Source of the DNA: an uncultured Erysipelotrichaceae bacterium
Lineage (GTDB): Bacteria > Bacillota_I > Bacilli_A > Erysipelotrichales > Erysipelotrichaceae
Length of the DNA: 64,000 bases
Direction: 5' to 3'
Assembly: GCA_942493105.1 (NCBI GenBank)
Contig: OW818668.1
Location: forward strand, 894,106 to 958,105
In this document: positions 51,997 through 64,000 of the stretch, one piece after another
Position numbering within the stretch: position 1 is the first letter of the stretch
Layout: every line of letters begins with the position of its first letter
Made by a program: the position numbers and the translations under genes
The notes under the pieces: model-generated
Databases searched by the model: none
What the model saw: the letters and a program-made list of their open reading frames with translations, nothing else
Told to the model about the DNA's origin: nothing

Positions 51997-52034
51997 AACA
52001 TCTGACTTTTGAGTCAGAGAAAGCGAGGGTGTTT

Positions 52035-53012
52035 ATGCTTAATGTTGGTATCGTAGGAACAGGTATGATCAGTGAATCGTTTGTTAAGGCAGCCCATCAA
52101 CTCAGTGAAGTCAAAGTCATCGCGATTCAAAGTCGCACAATGGAATCTGCTTTAGAGTTTGCTAAACAACATCAAATTGAAAAGGCATATGACAGTTACG
52201 AATTGATGTTGAAAGATGAAGAAATTGATACGATCTACATTGGTTTACCAAACAGTCTACATTTCGACTATGGGATCAAAGCTTTAAAAGCCCATAAGAC
52301 CACCATCTTAGAAAAACCTTTCTTATCCAATATGAAAGAATATGATGCTTTGATGGCTGTCTCACGTGAATTCAAAACCCGTGTCTTTGAGATGAACCGT
52401 GTCCTTCAACTCCCAAATTTTAAAGTCATCCAAGACCATTTAAAAGACATCGAACCTGTTAGTATGATCACCATGAACTTCAGTCAATACTCTCGCAAAT
52501 ATAATGATTATTTGGCTGGCAGGATCCTTAATGTCTTCTCAGATGAATATTCTGGAGGTGCTTTAGTAGATTTAGGGGTCTATGCGGTTCACTTCCTGGT
52601 GGGCTTATTTGGGTCTCCTAAAGAGCTGACTTATATTGCCTCACTACTGCCCAATACGATCGATGTGGGAGGTAACTTGATCTTAAAATACGATGGCTTT
52701 ATCGCCAGTGTCGTACAAAGTAAGAACTCTAAATGTGATAATCGTATTTGTATCCAAGGAGAAAAAGGAACGATCTATGCCTCTCCTACAGCCTCAGCTT
52801 TACGTAAAGTAGAACTGGATACCACAGAAAAGAAAGACATCACTTTACCTCATGACCTAGAAGGTATGGCATATACTTTAAAAGATATCAACGACATCGT
52901 TGAAACAAACAACGAAGCATTATATCAAATCCGAGTTGAACAATCGCTTAAAGTCATGGAAGTTTTAGTTAAAGCAAGACAAAGTGCAGGAATCGTTTTC
53001 AAAGCTGATTAG
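52035..53012 (+). CDS. Gfo/Idh/MocA-family NAD(P) oxidoreductase
   Basis: VGIVGTGMI Rossmann N-terminus. Confidence 0.8.
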   Translation: MLNVGIVGTGMISESFVKAAHQLSEVKVIAIQSRTMESALEFAKQHQIEKAYDSYELMLKDEEIDTIYIGLPNSLHFDYGIKALKAHKTTILEKPFLSNMKEYDALMAVSREFKTRVFEMNRVLQLPNFKVIQDHLKDIEPVSMITMNFSQYSRKYNDYLAGRILNVFSDEYSGGALVDLGVYAVHFLVGLFGSPKELTYIASLLPNTIDVGGNLILKYDGFIASVVQSKNSKCDNRICIQGEKGTIYASPTASALRKVELDTTEKKDITLPHDLEGMAYTLKDINDIVETNNEALYQIRVEQSLKVMEVLVKARQSAGIVFKAD

Positions 53013-53027
53013 TAGATCCATGATATA

Positions 53028-53060
53028 TAAAAAACGGAATCTTAATAGATTCCGTTTTTA
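53028..53060. terminator. bidirectional terminator
   Basis: aaaaaacggaatc-ttaata-gattccgttttt. Confidence 0.8.
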
Positions 53061-53066
53061 GTACGA

Positions 53067-53333
53067 TTATTTAGTCACAGGTCTTTTAAAGATGTATTCA
53101 TCTCCGACATTATATCGATCATACTCTGTCTGATTTTTAACTTTGATGGTAGCCTCAAAGTCTCCATCCATCCCTGTAATTTTGTATGTCACATAAAAAT
53201 AATATTGATTGGAACTAACAACTTCCTTATTGACGATGATGCTTTTTGTATCCACAGTTTTAGGACTACCAGAACACCCACCAATCAATAAAACACCTAT
53301 AACCAATACAGAAATCAAGATGAGCTTTTTCAA
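53067..53333 (-). CDS. small lipoprotein
   Basis: Signal peptide with LIGGCSGS lipobox. Confidence 0.45.
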   Translation of the reverse strand: MKKLILISVLVIGVLLIGGCSGSPKTVDTKSIIVNKEVVSSNQYYFYVTYKITGMDGDFEATIKVKNQTEYDRYNVGDEYIFKRPVTK

Positions 53334-53464
53334 AGGTTTATTCCTTTCGTTAATCTAATAATAGCACCATCATCATGAAAAACTACGAAAAATAGTGATG
53401 ATTTTTTAAAGTAAAAAGGATTGTTTTTCTCAACAAACTTGTACCTTTTCACTAGATGTTTACT

Positions 53465-53956
53465 CTATTTATTCTTGAATATTTGAATATAACCTCTAAA
53501 TAAAATCACAATAGCGGCCAGTATATACAGATAGCGATCATTGGAATATGCATATTGAGTAAAACTCAAATAAACAACAACACCTGCCAATAACACATAG
53601 AAAGCACCATTAAAGATCTTACTGTTGAGACTGGTGGGTACTTTGAGCTTCACATCAGCCACTTTATAGTTTTTTAGCTTCGTTAATTTATTGATGAAAA
53701 TAAATCGATAATATAATTCTACGATGATGGTCAATCCAACTAGGAAGACAGCATCATAGATCAAATCAAAACCCAAGGCATAAAAGAAAACCGAGGCTAC
53801 CAAGACAATAGTGTAGCGATTTCTAAAAAAGAACAAGCTTGTCATTTGATCTAAAGGAATCACATAGGCTGCATTTTCTTTTGGGATAGGTAAGATATAT
53901 CTTCCGTTTTTTTCTTTTATAACGCCCATCGATTCTATTGTTTTAGTGGATATCAT
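53465..53956 (-). CDS. hypothetical membrane protein
   Basis: Three to four TM helices; no recognisable family. Confidence 0.35.
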   Translation of the reverse strand: MISTKTIESMGVIKEKNGRYILPIPKENAAYVIPLDQMTSLFFFRNRYTIVLVASVFFYALGFDLIYDAVFLVGLTIIVELYYRFIFINKLTKLKNYKVADVKLKVPTSLNSKIFNGAFYVLLAGVVVYLSFTQYAYSNDRYLYILAAIVILFRGYIQIFKNK

Positions 53957-54143
53957 AACTCACCTCAGCATTCATTATATCTTAAATATAACCTTAATTC
54001 TATGCATATATATACAAGCGGTGAACTTGATTTTAGTGCTATAATGAGTTCAAAAGAGGATAGTGGGAACAATCATACTTTTAAGCATTTATGATCGATC
54101 ATGATTCAAGTTTTTAAACAATCATGATCAGAAAGGTATTAAA

Positions 54144-54794
54144 ATGCCCCAACCTCTGAATACAAAAAATGTTAATATTGAAGAACCTTTGACGATTCAT
54201 TTTGAATGCGAAAATTGCGGTCATGAGTTTACGCGAGAAGGAAAGATCACTTGTAGTGGAAAAGCACAAAGCAATATTGATGATCAAAATGATCCTTCTC
54301 AACAAGCCCACAATTATGCCTTAGGCAGATTAAGCTTAGCCCATGATCTTTTAGATTCAATGATCTCTGAAGGTATTGTACAAACCAACACAGATGAGAA
54401 AGACATCACCATCACCATCCATGGAAACAATAAATGTCCCAACTGTGGTTACACTCAAAGAATCATCCCTAAAAAAGTTAATCAAAAGAAAAAGAAAAAA
54501 TTTACGACTCAAAGAATGCTGATGTGGACGTGGGGAACCATCTTGCTTACCATGTTTATCTTTACGTATGTTTTCTATACTTACGCTCAACTTAGAACTT
54601 TTTTAAATACCTTTAAACTGGTACCTTTACTTGTTGGGTTACTCTTAGTATTGGTTCCAATTACCTTACTGATGATCAACTACTATTTTAAAGATCGAAA
54701 GCAAAATAAAAGAGCTAAGAATAGACTTAAAGAGGAAGCTTTACCTACCCCAAAGATGCCTGCAGTAACATTTGGTCAGCAAAAGACATTCTAG
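54144..54794 (+). CDS. zinc-ribbon protein with C-terminal TM anchors
   Basis: CENCGH ... CPNCGY CxxC pairs followed by two TM helices. Confidence 0.4.
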   Translation: MPQPLNTKNVNIEEPLTIHFECENCGHEFTREGKITCSGKAQSNIDDQNDPSQQAHNYALGRLSLAHDLLDSMISEGIVQTNTDEKDITITIHGNNKCPNCGYTQRIIPKKVNQKKKKKFTTQRMLMWTWGTILLTMFIFTYVFYTYAQLRTFLNTFKLVPLLVGLLLVLVPITLLMINYYFKDRKQNKRAKNRLKEEALPTPKMPAVTFGQQKTF

Positions 54795-54823
54795 CTAATT
54801 AGCTAATCACGATTATAGAAACG

Positions 54824-54851
54824 TAACTCAAGATCGAGTTATGTTTTTTTT
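54824..54851 (+). terminator. rho-independent terminator
   Basis: taactc-aagatc-gagtta stem followed by T8. Confidence 0.65.
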
Positions 54852-54968
54852 GTGATATAGGAATATCTGGTAGTAATTTCTTGTATAGAATCCGCATAAG
54901 ATATTTTAACAAATGATACCATATGTAGTATCATATAAGTATGTCAACTATAAATAAAGGAGAAGAAA

Positions 54969-55316
54969 ATGAACAAATATAAGATGATCGTTTATACAAT
55001 GAAACAAGGTGACTCCGAGGAATATGTTGCGGAGTATCCTGCTTTAAAAGGGGTTGCTGGAGTTGGATCAAGTCCATTTGAAGCAATCGAAAATTTAATG
55101 GAAAGTGCTGAGGTCAATGTTGCAGCGCTAATTGAAGCAGGTCTTCTTGTTCCAGAAAGTGATTCACAAACAAGAAATGAATACAGCGGCAAACTATCTG
55201 TACGATTATCAAGTAAGTTACATAGGATGGTTGCGGAGCTTTCGAAACAAGAAGGTGTTAGTATCAATCAATGTATTGTTGAAGCTGTTTCAATGTATGT
55301 AGGCAAGGTATATTAG
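54969..55316 (+). CDS. HicB-family antitoxin-like protein (RNase-H-like N-domain + RHH DNA-binding C-domain), no HicA partner seen
   Basis: YVAEYPALKGVAGVGSSPFEAIENL is typical of HicB, and the C-terminus SGKLSVRLSSKLHRMVAELSKQEGVSINQ is RHH-like. Confidence 0.6.
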   Translation: MNKYKMIVYTMKQGDSEEYVAEYPALKGVAGVGSSPFEAIENLMESAEVNVAALIEAGLLVPESDSQTRNEYSGKLSVRLSSKLHRMVAELSKQEGVSINQCIVEAVSMYVGKVY

Positions 55317-55321
55317 TAGAA

Positions 55322-56206
55322 CTAAATTCCCAACTCATTGAATGTTAAAGACTCTGATATGCGGGTATAGATCCTTTTTTCATGAGTAGATTCATGAGAA
55401 CTGAACTCATAGATGCCGATGAAACGGTATAACCTTCTCCCCAAAACATCTTTACTTCGTGCAAAGGTGATTCGCAAATAATTATCTTGTCTTTCAAGCC
55501 CTTCCATTTCATTTGGATCCAGGCGATACTCTAAGATTTTGTTTCGATTATCAGCTAAAACATTAAGCCAACCATGGCTACCCTGTGATCGCAACTCACC
55601 TTCTACAGTAGTTGCTAAATTTGGACACCAAATCCAATATTTTCCATTTAATTTGAAATATCCAGATTGTCTTTTAAAACGTACAAGACCAAATCCATTC
55701 GCAATCTCTTCGATGCGTCTAAAACGAATCTCATCTGAAACAGATAAATTTCTCTTCGTTTGTAATAATGTCGATGGGTTTTGATCAAAGTTCCATGCTG
55801 GAACTTTTGACAGTTGAATAATTGCTTTTAGTTCCGAAACAACAGAATTGATCTGCTGATCTACGTTTTCAAAACTTTGATCCAAATCAATTCTTCTTAA
55901 TATAAATTGTTTGGGTTCATCAAGGATTTCGATACTGGTTTGTATATCAAGCTGTCGGATCATATCCAAAGTGATTGTTGTCTTGTGATGAGGTTCATCG
56001 ACTTCTAACCCAAAATTGATTTGAGGAAAATACATATCTAGGAGTGCGTAACTACCATTGGTGCGCTTGATGTATTGTTGAGTAACAGGCTTGATATCTA
56101 GGTTTCCTAATCTCTGCCAAATCGCATTGACGACATAATTCTCATAGTCTTTCTTTTTAGTTCTAGATAACGTTTTGATTAAGTAGTCGAGTTTTAGATC
56201 AATCAT
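55322..56206 (-). CDS. Vsr/DUF559-like endonuclease-fold N-domain fused to an uncharacterised ~150-aa C-domain
   Basis: AIWQRL ... TQQYIKRTNGSYALLDMYFPQINFGLEVDEPHH follows the DUF559 consensus (W.aL ... RQ ... DFY.P ... IEvDG..H); 29 nt downstream of tnaA on the same strand. Confidence 0.5.
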   Translation of the reverse strand: MIDLKLDYLIKTLSRTKKKDYENYVVNAIWQRLGNLDIKPVTQQYIKRTNGSYALLDMYFPQINFGLEVDEPHHKTTITLDMIRQLDIQTSIEILDEPKQFILRRIDLDQSFENVDQQINSVVSELKAIIQLSKVPAWNFDQNPSTLLQTKRNLSVSDEIRFRRIEEIANGFGLVRFKRQSGYFKLNGKYWIWCPNLATTVEGELRSQGSHGWLNVLADNRNKILEYRLDPNEMEGLERQDNYLRITFARSKDVLGRRLYRFIGIYEFSSHESTHEKRIYTRISESLTFNELGI

Positions 56207-56235
56207 GGGTGTTTATCATAATTTCGTTTGTTTCA

Positions 56236-57621
56236 TTATAGTAATTCAAACCCTGCAGTAAAGTGTCTTAAGGATTGTATAGGTCCTTCATAGGTCAGCT
56301 TAAGACCCTTATAGGAGTCTCTGTTGGCGTAAATATCTCTTAAGGCATTGGCAATACAATCCATATGGTTATTGGTGTATACGCGTCTGGAAATGGCGAT
56401 ACGCATGGTTTCTAGTTCTGGCCAAACAGCTTCACCTGTCACAGGATCTTTGGATCCAAAAGCACAGGCACCTAACTCTACACAACGAATTCCAGCGAGT
56501 TCATATAAGGCAACAACCAATCTTTGAGAAGGGAATTCACTTTGTGGAATATGTGGGAAGAAACGTCTTCCATCGACATAAACTCCGTGTCCTCCAGTAG
56601 GTTCAATAATGGGGACACCCGCTTCTTTAAGTTTATTTCCCAGGTATTCAACTTGTTTGATTCGATACTCAAGATAATCATAATCACAGACTTCTTTTAA
56701 ACCAACCGCCAATGCATCTAAGTCTCTGCCAGCCAAGCCGCCATAGGTAATGAAGCCTTCATGGACGATGGCAAGCTGATTGGCCATTTGAAAGATGTTG
56801 AGTTTACGGGTTAAGAATAAACCACCTATATTGACTAAACCATCTTTCTTCGCACTCATCACGGCTGTTTCACAGTAAGATAAGGTTTCTAGAATAATGC
56901 TTTGAATAGAAGCATCCTTGAACTCTGCTTCTCTGGTTTTGATGAAGTAAGCATTCTCTGCGATACGAGCAATATCCATACACATTGGGATCTCATATTT
57001 TTGTGCCAAGGCTGCTGTTTCACGAATGTTTTTCATGGATACAGGTTGACCGCCATTGTTGTTGCAAGTGATTGTCAGCATGATCAAGCCAATGTTTTCT
57101 TTACCTTTGTCTAGAATAAAAGCTTCACAAGCTTTGATGTCTAGGTTACCTTTAAAGGCTTGTGGAGCACTGGAAGCATCTTTACCTGCTTCTATGACTA
57201 AATCTGCTACTTGTGCACCTAAGACTTCCGCATTGCCTCTAAAGGTATCAAAATGCATATTGCCTATGGCAATCTGTCCAGGTTTACAATAGATCTTCGC
57301 AATCAAATAATCGGCAGCTCTGCCTTGATGAACCGGTTGAACATAAGGCATATCAAAGACTTCATGAACACTCTTCTCAAGTCTGAAGTAACTGTCACAA
57401 CTGGCATAGGATTCATCACCCATCATCAAGGCTGCCCATTGATTCTTACTCATGGCGGAAGTACCGCTGTCGGTCAAGCAATCAATATAGACATTTTCAG
57501 CTTTGACTTTAAAGACATTGTATCCGGCTTCTTTAAGCCAGGCTCGTCTTTGATCAATGGTTGTCTTTTTGACGTGTTCAATCATTTTTATACGGAATGG
57601 TTCTGCGGTTTGATAGTTCAT
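56236..57621 (-). CDS. tnaA: tryptophanase / beta-eliminating lyase
   Basis: PLP-dependent tryptophanase family. ATG 57621 (MNYQTAEPFRIK) has a GGAG RBS; the track ORF is extended to 57639. Confidence 0.85.
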   Translation of the reverse strand: MNYQTAEPFRIKMIEHVKKTTIDQRRAWLKEAGYNVFKVKAENVYIDCLTDSGTSAMSKNQWAALMMGDESYASCDSYFRLEKSVHEVFDMPYVQPVHQGRAADYLIAKIYCKPGQIAIGNMHFDTFRGNAEVLGAQVADLVIEAGKDASSAPQAFKGNLDIKACEAFILDKGKENIGLIMLTITCNNNGGQPVSMKNIRETAALAQKYEIPMCMDIARIAENAYFIKTREAEFKDASIQSIILETLSYCETAVMSAKKDGLVNIGGLFLTRKLNIFQMANQLAIVHEGFITYGGLAGRDLDALAVGLKEVCDYDYLEYRIKQVEYLGNKLKEAGVPIIEPTGGHGVYVDGRRFFPHIPQSEFPSQRLVVALYELAGIRCVELGACAFGSKDPVTGEAVWPELETMRIAISRRVYTNNHMDCIANALRDIYANRDSYKGLKLTYEGPIQSLRHFTAGFELL

Positions 57622-57881
57622 ATGTGCTCCAGGGGTCAACTTAAGACCTGTTTACTTCCAATATTTAAGTACTATGCTACTAAGTTATGACAATAAATGA
57701 AGTTGGGCTGAAGTAGTTTAATAAGTTATAGCCTTTTACTTTATCTTAGAGTGATAATAAACCAAGTTCTTTAAGTGCTCCTTCTAAAACGATCATGGTG
57801 AATTTTGTTGGAAGTCAGTTCATTTCAATCATTTCAAATCAACTTGAGGATGTCCAGCAAAAAAACCACTGGGATTCAAAT

Positions 57882-58042
57882 ATACTTTATCTACTATAAA
57901 AGCATCGACTCGTGTTGAACATTGTGTAAAGAGTCTAGCTAAAGTATCTTGCATAGCGAGCGGTTGCCATACAGTACGGGTTCTTACTCATAAGAGCTTC
58001 CTCTCCAACTTTGGAGATCCTTGTTGATTTTATTATAACTGA
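57882..58042 (-). repeat. direct repeat copy 1 (~160 nt): -10-like box, palindromic 5' UTR, RBS and degraded short ORF
   Basis: Aligns by eye to 61594..61757. The minus strand reads TATAAT ... ggatctccaaagttggagaggaagctctt-ATG with an 18-codon ORF (MSKNPYCMATARYARYFS). Confidence 0.7.
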
Positions 58043-58164
58043 TAGGGTTAGTAGTTCTAACATTGTTTAATATAAACAAGGAATAATAATGAATTTAAGT
58101 GAAGATTCATGAGGATTTGAAATGGTGTTTTAAGTGGTTTCTTTGAAGACTAAGCATTGATTGT

Positions 58165-58192
58165 AAAAAAGGACTGTTACACGTAACAGTCC
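58165..58192 (-). terminator. minus-strand rho-independent terminator with no annotated upstream gene
   Basis: ggactgtta-cacg-taacagtcc 9-bp stem; A6 on plus equals T6 on minus. Confidence 0.6.
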
Positions 58193-58712
58193 GGATTATA
58201 GTAGTCTTTCACATTAAGTACTTACCTGGATTTGATGGCTCTTTTGTGGAAATTATAACGATATACATACTACCCCAGTGTCACTTTGACTGAGATATCC
58301 TTTTTAACAAGTTTATCGACATAGGTTTATAAGAATCACAACGAAGTTTAAAAGATGTTCTATAGCGATTTTGGGATAAGGATGGAACTTGGCTATAGGA
58401 GATGTTGTCCCATGTACTGGCACATTTAGCAGGTCATATCAATGTCAATTCAGCCTCTACAAATAGACCATTACGATTGTATAAAAACCTTGACTCTATA
58501 ATATAGAAGACTTAGAATTAAAGACAGGCGAAAGCTATATTTCTATACCAATAATGGTTTGTTACTCATTGGTTAGGTGGCTTCAATTGGAATTTTTAGA
58601 TTTTGATAATTTTGCGTTCATGAGTGATTTTGGTTTTGGTTTTAAAACGCATATATTTAGAAAATATACATGAGTCGGTAACTATGTTTAACAACTAAAA
58701 AGGGTGGGAAAA

Positions 58713-59498
58713 ATGCCATATTGTCAAAATTGTGGAAAGTCAGTATCAGGAAACGCAAAGTTTTGCATTGATTGTGGTGTCACTTTAAACCTAACAGAAG
58801 ATAACGCAACTAGAAAACAAGAATTTGTGGGAAAAATATCAAAATGTCCTTCTTGTGGTGCGGGAATACCAAGTTTTACAGCGATGTGTCCGGTCTGTGG
58901 ACATGAGATCAATTCTGCTCGTGTAACATCATCTATTAAGGATTTTGCAGAAAAGATGATTCAATGTGACTTAGAAATTGCTAATAGCCCTGTCAAACTT
59001 AAAAAAGGATGGAGCTCGTGGGGAAAATGGGGAAAAATCGGATGGGTTTTTCTTAACATTTCCACATTTGGAGGACCTGTAATTATTCCTTACATATTCA
59101 AATCATTTGGTGTTGGTGGGATTCCTACATTGACTGCAGCAGAAATGAAAAAGCTTACAATGATAGATAACTTTGCTTTCCCAAATGATCGAGAGAGTAT
59201 TCTTGAAGCGCTTTTATTTATCAAATCTCAAGTATCATCACTTTCGTCTGGAAAAGTTGATCGAAGTACACAACGATGGATAGGAATCTGGAAAAACAAA
59301 GCAGACCAGCTTTTTCAAAAAGCAGACATCATGTTTAAGGGTGACAAGATTGCTATAGATGCATATGATGTCATTGTTGAAATAGAGAAGAAAGTTAAAA
59401 AATCGCTTGGCAAAAAAAGAATTATAGGAATTGTCCTAATAATTATATTCGTCATTATAATACTTTCATACTATGCTACAAGAGAACCTTCAGTTTAA
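58713..59498 (+). CDS. double zinc-ribbon protein with C-terminal TM anchor (YdjG-like)
   Basis: CQNCG ... CIDCG and CPSCG ... CPVCGH; C-terminal TM IIGIVLIIIFVIIIL. ATG 58713 has an AAGGGTGGG RBS. Confidence 0.5.
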   Translation: MPYCQNCGKSVSGNAKFCIDCGVTLNLTEDNATRKQEFVGKISKCPSCGAGIPSFTAMCPVCGHEINSARVTSSIKDFAEKMIQCDLEIANSPVKLKKGWSSWGKWGKIGWVFLNISTFGGPVIIPYIFKSFGVGGIPTLTAAEMKKLTMIDNFAFPNDRESILEALLFIKSQVSSLSSGKVDRSTQRWIGIWKNKADQLFQKADIMFKGDKIAIDAYDVIVEIEKKVKKSLGKKRIIGIVLIIIFVIIILSYYATREPSV

Positions 59499-59626
59499 TT
59501 CACATCAACAAACGATTGAAATCCATCATTGATGTGAGGCTTGAATAAGGTTAAAAAGCTGAACTTATTTTTGGGACAACATAAGTTTTAACAGGTAGAA
59601 ATACCAGTGAAAAGGGAGGTCTAAAT

Positions 59627-60991
59627 ATGGGATTATTTGGTAAACAGAAGGCAGGTGGATTTATGGATGAAATTCGATGTGATGAACCCTCATACTTGAT
59701 TTGGAAATGGCATCCAACCGGTTCTCAACAAGGATCAAATAATAGAGAGAATGCAATAAGGTGGGGTTCTAGTCTACGTGTAAAAGATGGAGAAGCGGCT
59801 GTGTTTGTATATAATCAGAAAGATGATACGATGCAAGATTTCATCGTAGGTCCGCATGATCAGATACTGAAGACAGACAATCTACCGATCTTGGCCAGTA
59901 TTGTAGGGTTGGCTTATAAGGGCGGTACTCCGTTTCAAGCTGAAGTCTATTTCATTAACTTAGCAAAAGTGATTCAAGTTCCGTTTGCGGTTCCTTTCTT
60001 TGATTTATATGACCCAAGATTCTTGGACTTTGGAATACCAACCGCTGTAAGAGGAAGAATAACATTTAATATTGCAAACTACAGAGAATTTATTAAACTA
60101 CACAGACTTTCCAATTTTGACTTAAATTCATTCCAGATTCAAATACGTGATGCTGTCGCAAGATATGTTAAGGGCATTGTTACAAATGCACCATCAGAAA
60201 ACAATATTCCCGTTGTACAGATCGAGCGTGAAATTCTAAAAATTAATGAGTTAGTTGAAGAAAATATTAAAGAACGATTTGAAAGAGACTTTGGTGTGAA
60301 TATTACTTCTGTGGATATTACCGCTATTGAAGTAGATAAATCTAGTGTTGGTTATCATCAGTTAAAGAGTGTGACACAAGATGTTGCCTCAGCAACTGTA
60401 AAAGCCCAAGCAGAAGTAAACATTAAGAATCTGCACGATACACAAAGAATTAATGCCGTGAATTTAGAAGAAACGATGCGTATTCAAAGAGAAGAAGCAC
60501 AATATGCTCAAAGAAAGCAGTCAGAAACCTCCAATTTTGCAGCTTATCAACTTGAAAAACAAGTAGAGTTTGGTATTGCTGGTGCGGATGCATTGGGTCA
60601 GATGGGCGCAAATGGTGCCACTGAAATATCTGGCGGTGGAGGAATGAACCCGGTAGGTTTGATGACTGGAATGGCAATGGGCGGAGCTATAGGTCAAAAT
60701 ATGGCAGGTATGATGAATAATATGATGGGCGGAGCAAAACAAGCAGATCCTGAACTGACACCACCTCCTGTTATTGCTTCTGTGTATTATGTCGCTGTTA
60801 ATGGTCAAGCAACCGGTCCATATGATATCCGTACGTTAGCTCAGATGGCAACAGTCGGGACATTTTTAAAGACAAGTTTGGTATGGAAACAAGGAATGAC
60901 AAATTGGATTTCTGCAGACACTGTCCAAGAGTTGCAATTGGTCTTTGGCAGTGAACCTTCCTCTATACCTCCAGTTCCACCAACGATTTAA
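59627..60991 (+). CDS. SPFH/Band7_1-family protein (YdjI / 'virion core protein'-like) with Gly/Met-rich linker and C-terminal DUF4339 (GYF-like) domain
   Basis: MGLFGK N-terminus typical of this family; C-terminus YYVAVNGQATGPYDIRTLAQM ... WKQGMTNW. Confidence 0.55.
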   Translation: MGLFGKQKAGGFMDEIRCDEPSYLIWKWHPTGSQQGSNNRENAIRWGSSLRVKDGEAAVFVYNQKDDTMQDFIVGPHDQILKTDNLPILASIVGLAYKGGTPFQAEVYFINLAKVIQVPFAVPFFDLYDPRFLDFGIPTAVRGRITFNIANYREFIKLHRLSNFDLNSFQIQIRDAVARYVKGIVTNAPSENNIPVVQIEREILKINELVEENIKERFERDFGVNITSVDITAIEVDKSSVGYHQLKSVTQDVASATVKAQAEVNIKNLHDTQRINAVNLEETMRIQREEAQYAQRKQSETSNFAAYQLEKQVEFGIAGADALGQMGANGATEISGGGGMNPVGLMTGMAMGGAIGQNMAGMMNNMMGGAKQADPELTPPPVIASVYYVAVNGQATGPYDIRTLAQMATVGTFLKTSLVWKQGMTNWISADTVQELQLVFGSEPSSIPPVPPTI

Positions 60992-61004
60992 AGGAGTCGT
61001 TACA

Positions 61005-61355
61005 ATGAGCGATAATAATTTCTACTCAATGGATAAACTTATTGAATTTGGTATGAGTATTTCGATTGCCAGCCAAATGGCACAGTCAATGAATCGAACG
61101 ATAAACCAAATGACTATTCCAGGCTCATCTAATGCTATGCTTACTCAAATAGAAACAGTTTATTATGCTGTGATAAATGGTAAGCAAGCAGGACCTTATT
61201 CATTAACTGAGTTGTCAAGATTGATTAAAGATAAGATCATTTTAAAGGAAACTTATATCTGGAAACCTGGCATGGTTCAATGGGATCTTGTAGAAAATGT
61301 TGATGTGTTATTAAGACTTGTGGCAGTAACTCCACCACCGATACCTAACCTTTAG
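61005..61355 (+). CDS. DUF4339 (GYF-like) domain protein
   Basis: YYAVINGKQAGPYSLTEL ... WKPGMVQW. ATG 61005 is preceded by AAGGAG; the track ORF 60945 is an extended alternative. Confidence 0.5.
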   Translation: MSDNNFYSMDKLIEFGMSISIASQMAQSMNRTINQMTIPGSSNAMLTQIETVYYAVINGKQAGPYSLTELSRLIKDKIILKETYIWKPGMVQWDLVENVDVLLRLVAVTPPPIPNL

Positions 61356-61368
61356 TAGGTGTTTGAAA

Positions 61369-61399
61369 CAACCTGCAACACTTTATTGCAGGTTTTTTG
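61369..61399 (+). terminator. rho-independent terminator
   Basis: aacctgcaa-cactttat-tgcaggtt followed by T6. Confidence 0.75.
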
Positions 61400-61593
61400 T
61401 AGTCGCAATCAAGCATTTCTGTCTAAAAATAAACTAAAAACGATAAATTTACTGAGAAGTTTGCATAACGTTATATTTCATCAAATCATTTTTAATGAAT
61501 TTTCTCGATGATACCCACATTTGAATAGGTCGACTTTTTTATCGTCACAATGTGAAAGTTGTATGTGTAAAAATAAAAGACTATTCCACCTAA

Positions 61594-61757
61594 TACACTT
61601 TATCTACGACAAAAGCAACGACCTCGATTTGATCATTGTGTAAAGAGTCCAGATAAAGCATCTTGCATAGCGAGCGGTTGCCATACAGTACGGTTTTCTT
61701 ACTCATAAGAGCTTCCTCTCCAACTTTGGAGATCCTTGTTGATTTTATTTTAACTGA
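61594..61757 (-). repeat. direct repeat copy 2 (~164 nt) with a 38-aa ORF (61590..61706, minus)
   Basis: MSKKTVLYGNRSLCKMLYLDSLHNDQIEVVAFVVDKVY preceded by GGAGAGGAAG. This N-terminus resembles NeuD/PglD-type sugar acetyltransferase starts, but the ORF stops after 38 codons. Confidence 0.6.
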
Positions 61758-62101
61758 AAGACTAAAGGAAACTCAAAAACCCATTCTCAAAAATGCATGA
61801 TTATATTTTTGGTTTCATGTAATAAAAAATCGTAACTGAATAAATATCTATAAAGCGTGGTTAATAAGCGAAGTATTGCATTATACGTTAATGTTTAAAA
61901 ATTCTGCAGATGTATCTAAACTCAACCAAAAACTTGATTAAGTATGCTTTTTACTGATATCATAAATATACGAGAATTGTTTAATTTAAATGACTGAATA
62001 CTATCTTATGTAGATCAAAAAACTCGTATCTATACAATCAATGCTTATTAAATTGAGAAAATTGTATACATTCAGTTTGTTAAATATTGTGGGGTAATAC
62101 A

Positions 62102-64000
62102 ATGGTTAGGAAAGAGCCGATTTATTATCATTTGATCTTTGGGTCACTTCAGTGTAAAGAGACTTTTGGGGTTGATCTTTTATATGGTGACTACGAGTAT
62201 ATTATCAACCTCAATTCATCACTAATTAGTAAACTTTATTTTGAGAATTACAGTGAAGTAAAAACATATTATTGCAGTGAACTAATCAATAAATCAGAAT
62301 ATGAAGAACTAACACTTCTGGAATACACATTTCATAATAAAAAAGCTTTTGATTTATTACACAATCTAGCAGAAAGGCTACTTTTTCGTAATGAGGTTCA
62401 ATATCTGTTTCTATGTATCGATTGCTTGTGGGTTATTGATAAATTACTAGGTTTTTATGATTTAGTTGATGAGTCTGTGTACTTAACTGTCAACTCTCGT
62501 TTAAAAAATGAGTATGATGTAGATCTTAGGTTCCACTATGCACTAACTTTTACAAGATATAAATATTTAAACGAAATGATTGCGATCGAAACAAGAAAAA
62601 AATTCAAAATTGAAAAGCTTATTCGTACTGCAATTACCACCATCGCTATCGCACATTCAATAGCAGAAGCGTTTAGACCGAATTTATACAAAATTGGGTT
62701 TCGTATTCTTGAACAAATCGATACAATTGAACTTCAAAAAATAGTTAATGAGGATAATCTGAAAACGATTATTAACGAAATATTACAATCTACTGTTTCG
62801 ATCAATGAAGATGCTTTAAATTTTTATGTAACAAGACGGCTAAGTTTGAAACTAGATATGACGTTAGGTAAAAACCTCCCAAACAAAATCAAGATTAACT
62901 ACATTCAAGATAACTTAGATTTTGTATCAGCTTTAATTAAAGGCAAGATTCCTCAATCTTTTATTGCATTACAAAAAATCCTTGAAATTCTTGAAAATGA
63001 CAGAATTGAGGACTTAGGTGAGAAATATAAATATCATAATTTTAATATAGGATCTTTGGTAATATATTTATTAAAGATTGATAATAGTTACACCATTATA
63101 AGACTCTTTACAGTTCTTAAAATAATTGAGTTTGACCAGATGTATAAAGTCTGGGATCAATCAATAGGGTCAAATTATCTTGATCTATGTTATAACTATT
63201 TAATATACAAATCAAAGACCGAAAAACACTTTAAATTAAGTAAGAATGATAAAACGTGGTTGCTATGCCTTTTAAAAGCGTTAAGGAGCGAAAATGATTT
63301 GACTCAACCAGTTGATAGAATAGTTTTTTTGTTTAATAATATTGACTTCCTTTCCATTGATATGGAGACCATTATAGAAATATGCAAACATATTTATGAC
63401 ACTGAAAAATATAAATCAACACACGATAGTATTCAATTGGCGCTAGAAGCTAGACAGTATGAACTTGTCAAATACCTAGATGCAAATAGGGAAGTAATTG
63501 ATTTACTTGTTTCTAAATTCAATATTGAAAAACTTAATAAAACCAAACGATTTGTGATTATGAGACAACTTGAAAAGAATTGTGAGAGATACTTTTCTCA
63601 AATTCAAGATAGTCCTTTGGGCTATAAGATAATTGTTGCTCGAAATGCGAATGATATTCAAAAACATCAGCGTACATGTTTGTATATTGATCAGATAAAA
63701 TACATGATGAGAGAGCTAAAGGTTAGAAATATCACAGATCTTTTCCATTTCACACCAATTGATAATCTTGCGAGTATTCTTGAAAAAGGAATTATACCCA
63801 GAAGTTATCACAGACAACTAAAAGTTCGGTCTATTTGTACAGATTCTGAACGTTATGATCATAGATTGGAATACACTAGTTTATCAATAATGAGGCCGAA
63901 TAGTAGAATGCTTTACTATAAGAGGGCTGAAAAGATTATAGTGATTTTAAGGATTGATGCTCAGATTTTGCTTAATGTAACGAACCATCCGTTATTCTTT
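62102..64000 (+). CDS. large hypothetical protein (>633 aa, 3' end outside window) with C-terminal DarT-like DUF4433 ADP-ribosyltransferase domain
   Basis: Open frame 62102 to window end, absent from the ORF track because no stop lies in the window. The C-terminus LFHFTPIDNLASILEKGII ... RPNSRMLYY parallels the DarT hFThi.NL.sIL..G ... RsPMLYai motifs; AT-rich codon usage. Confidence 0.6.
   Translation, partial: MVRKEPIYYHLIFGSLQCKETFGVDLLYGDYEYIINLNSSLISKLYFENYSEVKTYYCSELINKSEYEELTLLEYTFHNKKAFDLLHNLAERLLFRNEVQYLFLCIDCLWVIDKLLGFYDLVDESVYLTVNSRLKNEYDVDLRFHYALTFTRYKYLNEMIAIETRKKFKIEKLIRTAITTIAIAHSIAEAFRPNLYKIGFRILEQIDTIELQKIVNEDNLKTIINEILQSTVSINEDALNFYVTRRLSLKLDMTLGKNLPNKIKINYIQDNLDFVSALIKGKIPQSFIALQKILEILENDRIEDLGEKYKYHNFNIGSLVIYLLKIDNSYTIIRLFTVLKIIEFDQMYKVWDQSIGSNYLDLCYNYLIYKSKTEKHFKLSKNDKTWLLCLLKALRSENDLTQPVDRIVFLFNNIDFLSIDMETIIEICKHIYDTEKYKSTHDSIQLALEARQYELVKYLDANREVIDLLVSKFNIEKLNKTKRFVIMRQLEKNCERYFSQIQDSPLGYKIIVARNANDIQKHQRTCLYIDQIKYMMRELKVRNITDLFHFTPIDNLASILEKGIIPRSYHRQLKVRSICTDSERYDHRLEYTSLSIMRPNSRMLYYKRAEKIIVILRIDAQILLNVTNHPLFF

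Follow-up and report, generated by a model that had tools for sequence, protein, structure and literature searches.

A long-form DarT1-type ADP-ribosyltransferase in an uncultured Erysipelotrichaceae bacterium, probably the toxin of a DarT1-NADAR module

Background

The analyzed stretch of DNA (64,000 nucleotides of contig OW818668.1 from an uncultured Erysipelotrichaceae bacterium, here referred to as the window) ends within a long, AT-rich open reading frame (ORF). The C-terminal part of its product resembles DarT, a family of toxins that attach ADP-ribose to DNA. To which kind of system does such a large protein belong, and what could be the role of the long region in front of the toxin domain? 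An earlier note on this DNA, made from the sequence without database searches, had proposed a defence effector or toxin that is not a described system. Based on our analysis the ORF is probably the long-form DarT1 toxin of a DarT1-NADAR (DarTG1-type) toxin-antitoxin and phage-defence module and carries an accessory N-terminus. The toxin is an architectural variant of this known system and not a new kind of system. The proposed novelty was overstated, since DarT1-NADAR (DarTG1) has been described for toxin-antitoxin function as well as for phage defence and only the long N-terminus is undescribed.

DarT1 was demonstrated to modify single-stranded DNA (ssDNA) with ADP-ribose, which it joins to the N2 of guanine (Schuller et al. 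2023; PMC11543638). It is neutralised by a NADAR glycohydrolase, a type IV antitoxin, and not by a macrodomain (PMC11543638; PMC11825919). In the papers searched DarT1 is described as a single-domain protein of ~208 amino acids (aa) (PMC11543638; PMC9503650), and the nucleotide-modifying ADP-ribosyltransferases (ARTs) were termed "mostly single-domain" (PMC12945103).

The reading frame and the full-length protein

Translation from position 62081 confirmed the uninterrupted ORF that had been reported for the end of the window. It lies in frame 2 and runs from ATG 62102 to base 64000 over 633 codons without a stop, with the TAA at 62081-62083 as the in-frame stop upstream. The translation begins with MVRKEP, and the peptide ITDLFHFTPIDNLASILEKG... 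was found from residue 544 onward. The composition of the segment (GC 0.297) gives a stop probability of 0.085 per codon, at which 633 stop-free codons would occur by chance with a probability of ~10^-24.5. As had been remarked, the ORF is missing from the ORF lists. This is because its frame runs off the window end and such ORFs were omitted.

When 5.8 billion protein clusters were searched with a word index, a single match was obtained. The matching protein, here named P0001, is identical, comprises 723 aa, stems from a contig of an NCBI genome and is a singleton cluster among ~15 billion proteins. Given its length, the end of the toxin gene is expected at window-equivalent 64273. In P0001 the DarT module spans residues ~530-715 and forms the C-terminal ~190 aa, so that the earlier note was right to place the DarT domain at the C-terminal end of a large protein.

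The same architecture was found in a second organism. P0003 (758 aa), a protein of an independently assembled SRA data set, is co-linear with P0001 from end to end with 35% identity in the DarT module and 21% in the N-terminus. The local alignment of both N-termini reached a score of 154 compared to 68.8 +/- 11.4 for shuffled sequences (z 7.5). With window-preserving shuffles the z value was 6.4, and 0 of 300 shuffles reached the score. Since the architecture is conserved in this second independent assembly, the fusion is not an artefact of assembly or of a frameshift.

The C-terminal domain and its active site

The Pfam family PF14487 (DarT/DUF4433) matched residues 548-711 of P0001 with 58.4 bits (E 1.1e-15), and the match extends over profile positions 1-190 of 201. 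The 633 aa encoded in the window alone reached 25.2 bits (E 1.6e-5, residues 548-625), compared to a curated gathering cutoff of 22.5 bits. Both scores bear out the DarT-like (DUF4433) domain that the earlier note had placed at the C-terminus.

The sole sequence match of P0001 in the PDB was DarT1 of E. coli C7 (8BAQ, E 1e-9). Additionally, a clade profile was built from the 23 nearest DarT domains (here named A3). It matched 8BAQ with 205.7 bits (E 4.8e-60), whereas the DarT2-DarG fusion of Thermosipho (7OMU) reached 46.5 bits and the Thermus DarT2 (7OMV) 13.7 bits, which is not significant. Judged from these sequence comparisons, it is close to certain that the C-terminal domain is an ADP-ribosyltransferase of the guanine-specific DarT1 clade. 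The resemblance to the Thermus and Mycobacterium enzymes, i.e. to DarT2, that had been proposed in the earlier note did not hold, given these scores and an Asn instead of a His at the base-coordinating position.

Mutagenesis has shown that R52, M71, N104 and E152 of DarT1 are essential, and D54 plays a role as well (PMC11543638). The base-coordinating N104 stands in the place of His119 of DarT2 (PMC11543638). In the PDB and clade alignments the residues R52, D54, M71, N104 and E152 corresponded to R584, D586, M603, N636 and E674 of P0001. Furthermore, all clade-invariant columns were kept in P0001 (H549, F550, N555, I559, G563, D581, R584, P599, N600, N636, A637, F660, Q672 and E674). The NAD-binding H-x-T motif (H549-F550-T551) and Q672-A673-E674 both represent invariant columns of the clade, and in the crystallised DarT1 construct, an E152A mutant, QAA is the aligned counterpart of the QAE of the A3 profile. 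N636 and the catalytic E674 fall past the window end and were seen in P0001 only. There, the catalytic Glu that had been listed as a point to check in the missing C-terminus was present (E674 in QAEIL), together with the NAA-like N636-A637-S638.

A phage or plasmid origin of the toxin gene was considered on the basis of tblastn searches and rejected. All plasmid matches were restricted to the DarT domain with 29-38% identity, and phage matches were not obtained. The best match to the DarT domain in PLSDB was located in NZ_CP154629.1 of Acetoanaerobium noterae (845860-846396, 32.8% identity, E 6e-13). The gene table of PLSDB, which is incomplete, lists no feature at this position, and the "plasmid" is of chromosome size (2.63 Mb).

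The NADAR partner in related systems

The clade of the toxin determines which partner is to be expected. For DarT1 this is a NADAR hydrolase and not the macrodomain protein DarG. Among the 8 upstream ORFs scanned neither a macrodomain nor a NADAR domain was found, in agreement with the earlier statement that no macrodomain gene is visible upstream. Given that the antitoxins cognate to DarT1 are of the NADAR class, a missing macrodomain does not speak for a system without antitoxin.

In the related systems the partner was consistently present. An adjacent NADAR-DarT1 gene (PF22397) was found in 10 of 10 distinct systems with readable flanks, in 9 of them downstream and in one upstream of the toxin gene. 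The partners in these informative relatives were always NADAR and never a macrodomain protein. Next to P0003 (locus L001) the NADAR gene follows the stop of the toxin gene at a distance of 1 nt. It encodes 227 aa (L001:2351-3031), belongs to Pfam NADAR-DarT1 and matched the NADAR of G. lovleyi (8BAT) with E 2.6e-38. The NADAR gene was located downstream of P0002 (354 aa, L002), of P0019 (688 aa, L003/L004) and of P0092 (584 aa, L020) as well, and the same arrangement was present in seven metagenome loci (L021-L027) whose toxins are relatives in the DarT domain only. Immediately upstream of the toxin it was found for P0128 (640 aa, L019). The locus of P0145 (770 aa, L018) was uninformative, as its contig extends only 189 bp past the gene. 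The loci L003 and L019 additionally adjoin type I restriction-modification genes. By analogy with these relatives it is likely that a NADAR gene lies downstream of the toxin in the source genome.

The PADLOC model for DarT matched the toxin only weakly (20.8 bits), and NCBIfam contained no match for the toxin protein. Separately, none of the models of PADLOC-DB 2.0 matched the NADAR partner of P0003 (L001:2351-3031) even at E<=10. Considering the low DarT score and the unmatched NADAR, long-form systems may be under-called in defence surveys.

The N-terminal region

The N-terminal ~530 residues could not be assigned to any family, as the earlier note had stated. Residues 1-540 are rich in L (13.5%), I (11.1%), K (9.1%), E (7.4%), Y (7.0%) and N (6.7%). 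They gave no family match in Pfam, NCBIfam, PADLOC or the PDB, for Pfam and PADLOC even at E<=10, and a profile search of the PDB with the N-terminus yielded an insignificant match to IL-34 only. Neither a transmembrane segment nor a signal peptide was detected in P0001 (Kyte-Doolittle maximum over 19 aa of 1.47).

With phmmer, 1.84 billion representatives were searched exhaustively, which resulted in 1,127 matches. The best 150 of these all aligned via residues ~530-715, and extra N-terminal similarity was present in P0003 only. A profile of the N-terminus (A1) retrieved P0001 itself and nothing else in the word-indexed search. A metagenome scan for N-terminal homologues returned relatives in the DarT domain only, and a scan of viral contigs for further ones returned nothing. 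When six other long extensions were compared to the N-terminus of P0001, the z values were below 2, and hhalign gave probabilities of less than 1% for the N-terminus against other long extensions.

The AlphaFold2 models were unusable with a pLDDT of 35.5 for the full length and 40.5 for the N-terminus. The two models agreed solely on a short beta-hairpin followed by ~28 helices, at low confidence. With the same low confidence the region may be described as mostly alpha-helical after a short beta-hairpin.

We consider the N-terminus to be probably a fast-evolving and all-helical accessory domain with a regulatory or targeting and non-catalytic role. Two other explanations for the long frame were rejected. 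An internal start which would yield a stand-alone DarT1 lacks a Shine-Dalgarno-like motif before Met535/536, and the fusion is kept in P0003. For the idea that the N-terminus is itself an antitoxin, a NADAR or macrodomain fused to the toxin, neither the six-frame NADAR search of the window (E<=10) nor the macro family of Pfam gave a match.

Extensions across the DarT1 clade

To which extent are N-terminal extensions found in other members of the clade? Extensions were counted over the 149 nearest DarT-domain representatives, taken from the best 150 of the 1,127 phmmer matches. At least 80 additional residues were present in 84 of the 149 representatives, at least 150 in 42, at least 300 in 14 and at least 450 in 4. 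Together with that of P0001 these 84 extensions (85 sequences) fell into 56 unrelated BLAST groups.

A few extensions showed recognizable features. Sel1 repeats were found in those of P0092 and P0051, the extension of P0013 had a weak PcrA/UvrD Tudor-like match below the cutoff (E 0.0013), and P0019 carries a signal-peptide-like start and a hydrophobic segment. The extensions of P0019, P0128, P0092 and P0002 are unrelated to that of P0001. Among the extended relatives compared, P0001 shares its N-terminal family with P0003 only.

Many proteins of the DarT1 clade consequently bear long and mutually unrelated N-termini yet keep NADAR, in contrast to the small single-domain enzyme of the literature. 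No discussion of extended DarT forms was found in the literature searched. Should the extensions determine the time or place of toxin action, they would open a way to the unsolved triggering of DarTG. A speculative idea, which we hold to be possible but doubtful, is that the N-terminus serves as a phage-cue sensor or autoinhibitory gate on DarT1 and that the extensions of the clade represent an unrecognised, rapidly diversifying sensor repertoire. If true, this repertoire would account for the activation of DarTG1-type systems and for the phages that bring it about. It would also extend the modular pattern of a variable sensor plus a conserved effector to the DNA ADP-ribosylating toxins.

The proposed mechanism and its alternatives

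As toxin of a DarT1-NADAR module the protein would act as follows. By homology with DarT1 of E. coli C7, the C-terminal domain would use NAD+ to put ADP-ribose on the N2 of guanine in ssDNA. The guanine adduct would keep the host or an infecting phage from replicating, and the NADAR glycohydrolase, as type IV antitoxin, would remove it. The predicted NADAR gene would begin no more than a few dozen bases from the stop codon of the toxin, just past the window. The N-terminal ~530 aa may regulate or target the toxin, e.g. by autoinhibition or by sensing of a trigger.

Several observations weigh against this reading. A hidden Markov model (HMM) of 120 DarT1-associated NADARs found no NADAR in the six frames of the 64-kb window at E<=10, so that any partner must lie just past the window end. 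The aromatic C-terminal tail "YFxPRxDYxxW", which many members of the clade possess, is missing in P0001, and the segment preceding its QAE motif is short. Due to both features a reduced activity of P0001 is possible. The active DarT1 of E. coli C7 likewise ends soon after the point equivalent to the end of P0001. Finally, the role of the N-terminus is drawn from analogy, and its function as a sensor in particular is speculative and rather doubtful.

The lack of an antitoxin-like gene upstream or elsewhere in the window would fit a self-contained sensor-effector without a dedicated antitoxin, in which the N-terminus autoinhibits the ADP-ribosyltransferase until a phage cue arrives. Such a system would also give a role to a large N-terminal domain that has no other assigned one, and the long relative at L018 has no NADAR upstream, though the end of its contig limits this observation. 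However, all relatives with readable flanks adjoin NADAR, including P0003 and four with extensions of ~410-560 aa. As the extended relatives keep NADAR, long N-termini do not replace the antitoxin. We therefore regard a system of this kind as unlikely.

The missing tail motif could also indicate that the toxin gene was acquired horizontally and is now decaying or inactive, a relic tolerated through its lost activity. Such a reading would agree with the singleton status of P0001 among ~15 billion proteins and with the truncated gene remnants located nearby. On the other hand, the frame of 723 codons is intact at 30% GC, where the visible part alone is not expected by chance, and all invariant and catalytic positions are kept, which makes a relic very improbable.

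A further possibility is a secreted or polymorphic interbacterial toxin, with a helical trafficking N-terminus (e.g. for type VII secretion), a DarT warhead and NADAR as the immunity protein. The layout of a long helical N-terminus, a C-terminal toxin and, in relatives, a small adjoining neutralising gene indeed recalls the polymorphic toxins of Firmicutes, and the signal-peptide-like start and hydrophobic segment of P0019 point in this direction. However, residues 1-540 matched no LXG, WXG, RHS or other trafficking domain at E<=10, and no signal peptide or transmembrane segment was detected. The conserved toxin domain with hypervariable N-termini is the reverse of what is found in polymorphic toxins. 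Moreover, relatives adjoin type I restriction-modification genes and the toxin lies near a type IV restriction enzyme, which fits intracellular defence islands. Only a small chance is left for secretion.

A thymidine-specific toxin of the DarT2 type with a macrodomain DarG partner, as suggested by the Pfam family name "ssDNA thymidine ADP-ribosyltransferase" and by the HFT, NAA and QAE motifs common to both clades, is next to excluded by the PDB match to DarT1 only, the clade profile scores, Asn636 (N104 of DarT1) instead of H119 of DarT2, the NADAR partners of all relatives with readable flanks and the scanned upstream ORFs free of macrodomains.

Comparison with known systems

The reading as a DarT1-NADAR toxin is best judged next to the characterised enzymes. 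Compared to DarT1 of E. coli C7 (8BAQ; PMC11543638, PMC11825919), the catalytic domain of P0001 is homologous over the whole length and the essential residues match. The identity is modest (E 1e-9 with a single sequence). The characterised DarT1 is a single domain of ~208 aa, whereas P0001 comprises 723 aa with an extra N-terminus of ~530 aa. P0001 resembles DarTG1 in that its closest relatives adjoin a NADAR-DarT1 gene and in the defence-island-like context of the toxin. In DarTG1 the NADAR gene adjoins the toxin, whereas at the locus of P0001 it is predicted from relatives.

DarT2 (Thermus aquaticus, M. tuberculosis; 7OMV; PMC5179494) shares PF14487, the ART fold class and the HFT/NAA/QAE pattern, and like DarT1 it is a toxin that ADP-ribosylates ssDNA bases and is paired with a hydrolase antitoxin. 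It differs by a base-coordinating His, by its specificity for thymidine at TNTC motifs and by the macrodomain protein DarG, which also binds the toxin.

A similar concept is realised in toxin-antitoxin defence toxins that are fused or bear a sensor. In CapRel a toxin domain is joined to a variable domain, which is a possible gate for a phage cue and at the same time the antitoxin. CapRel is not known to be related to P0001 in sequence, and the relatives of P0001 keep a separate enzymatic antitoxin.

Genomic setting

The toxin ORF had been described as markedly AT-rich, and its GC content of 0.297 compared to 0.378 for bases 1-61000 agrees with this. Among the 47 stop-to-stop ORFs with 200 aa or more in the window this value is the lowest. 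A flanking gene encodes a beta-eliminating lyase with 91% identity to the copy of an Erysipelotrichaceae metagenome-assembled genome and 77-90% to others. At 13 related Erysipelotrichaceae lyase loci neither the toxin nor NADAR nor the neighbour genes of the window were found within 10 kb. A scan of genome contigs with P0001 did not find the toxin gene in the GTDB species representatives either. The toxin gene is strain-specific. With its lowest GC content and its absence from the loci of relatives it looks horizontally acquired, as had been suspected.

Further defence or toxin-antitoxin genes are located within 7 kb of the toxin (Table 1). These are a PvuRts1I-like/SRA gene, encoding a type IV restriction endonuclease that depends on modified cytosine, and an adjoining HicB-like gene. 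Closer to the toxin lies a cassette of three genes including an SPFH-GYF protein of 454 aa. This zinc-ribbon/SPFH-GYF/GYF cassette is bracketed by a direct repeat of ~170 nt, the copies of which are spaced by 3,714 bp. The repeat blocks are 87-97% identical, and a core 29-mer is exact in both copies, where 0 would be expected by chance. On the minus strand each copy carries a ribosome binding site, an ATG and the truncated 5' remnant of a gene with ~38 codons left. In copy 1 the remnant is frameshifted by a deletion of 1 nt. The repeat has the appearance of a scar that repeated insertion of cassettes or recombination left just upstream of the toxin. Taken together, the related lyase loci without these genes, the neighbours, the repeat and the lowest GC content indicate a variable, horizontally supplied and defence-rich region.

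As the terminator-like hairpin downstream of the GYF gene closes the preceding gene, the toxin ORF would head its own transcription unit. Rfam gave no match in 52000-64000.

Table 1. Position of the toxin gene, its conserved residues and neighbouring features in the window
Feature	Position	Strand	Remark
Toxin gene, first 633 of 723 codons	62102..64000	+	Predicted stop codon at window-equivalent 64271-64273, past the window
N-terminal orphan region, residues 1 to ~530	62102..63691	+	No family match
DarT1 ADP-ribosyltransferase domain, in-window part, residues ~531-633	63692..64000	+	Pfam, alignments
H549-F550-T551	63746-63754	+	
D581	63842-63844	+	
R584	63851-63853	+	
D586	63857-63859	+	
P599-N600	63896-63901	+	
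M603	63908-63910	+	
Shine-Dalgarno-like GGGGT, weak	62091..62095	+	7 nt before ATG 62102; putative, read from the sequence
Promoter-like TTGATT-18-TATCAT, extended -10 TG	61934..61963	+	Candidate; such sites no commoner than shuffle expectation
Intrinsic-terminator-like hairpin after the upstream GYF gene	61370..61394	+	Terminator-like sites: 3 found, 0.5 expected
PvuRts1I-like N-terminal and SRA domain protein (type IV restriction endonuclease, modified-cytosine-dependent)	55322-56206	-	132.5 and 86.3 bits
HicB-family antitoxin-like ORF	54969-55316	+	Adjoins the PvuRts1I-like/SRA gene
Cassette: double zinc-ribbon protein (hydrophobic C-terminus), SPFH/Band-7 protein with C-terminal GYF_2, small GYF_2 protein	58704-61355	+	
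Direct repeat of ~170 nt, copy 1	57879-58045		
Direct repeat of ~170 nt, copy 2	61592-61760		Ends 342 bp before the toxin start

Between the lyase gene and the zinc-ribbon gene a stretch of ~1 kb (57640-58703, GC ~0.34) contains no ORF of at least 50 aa wholly inside. It holds repeat copy 1 and short ORF fragments only.

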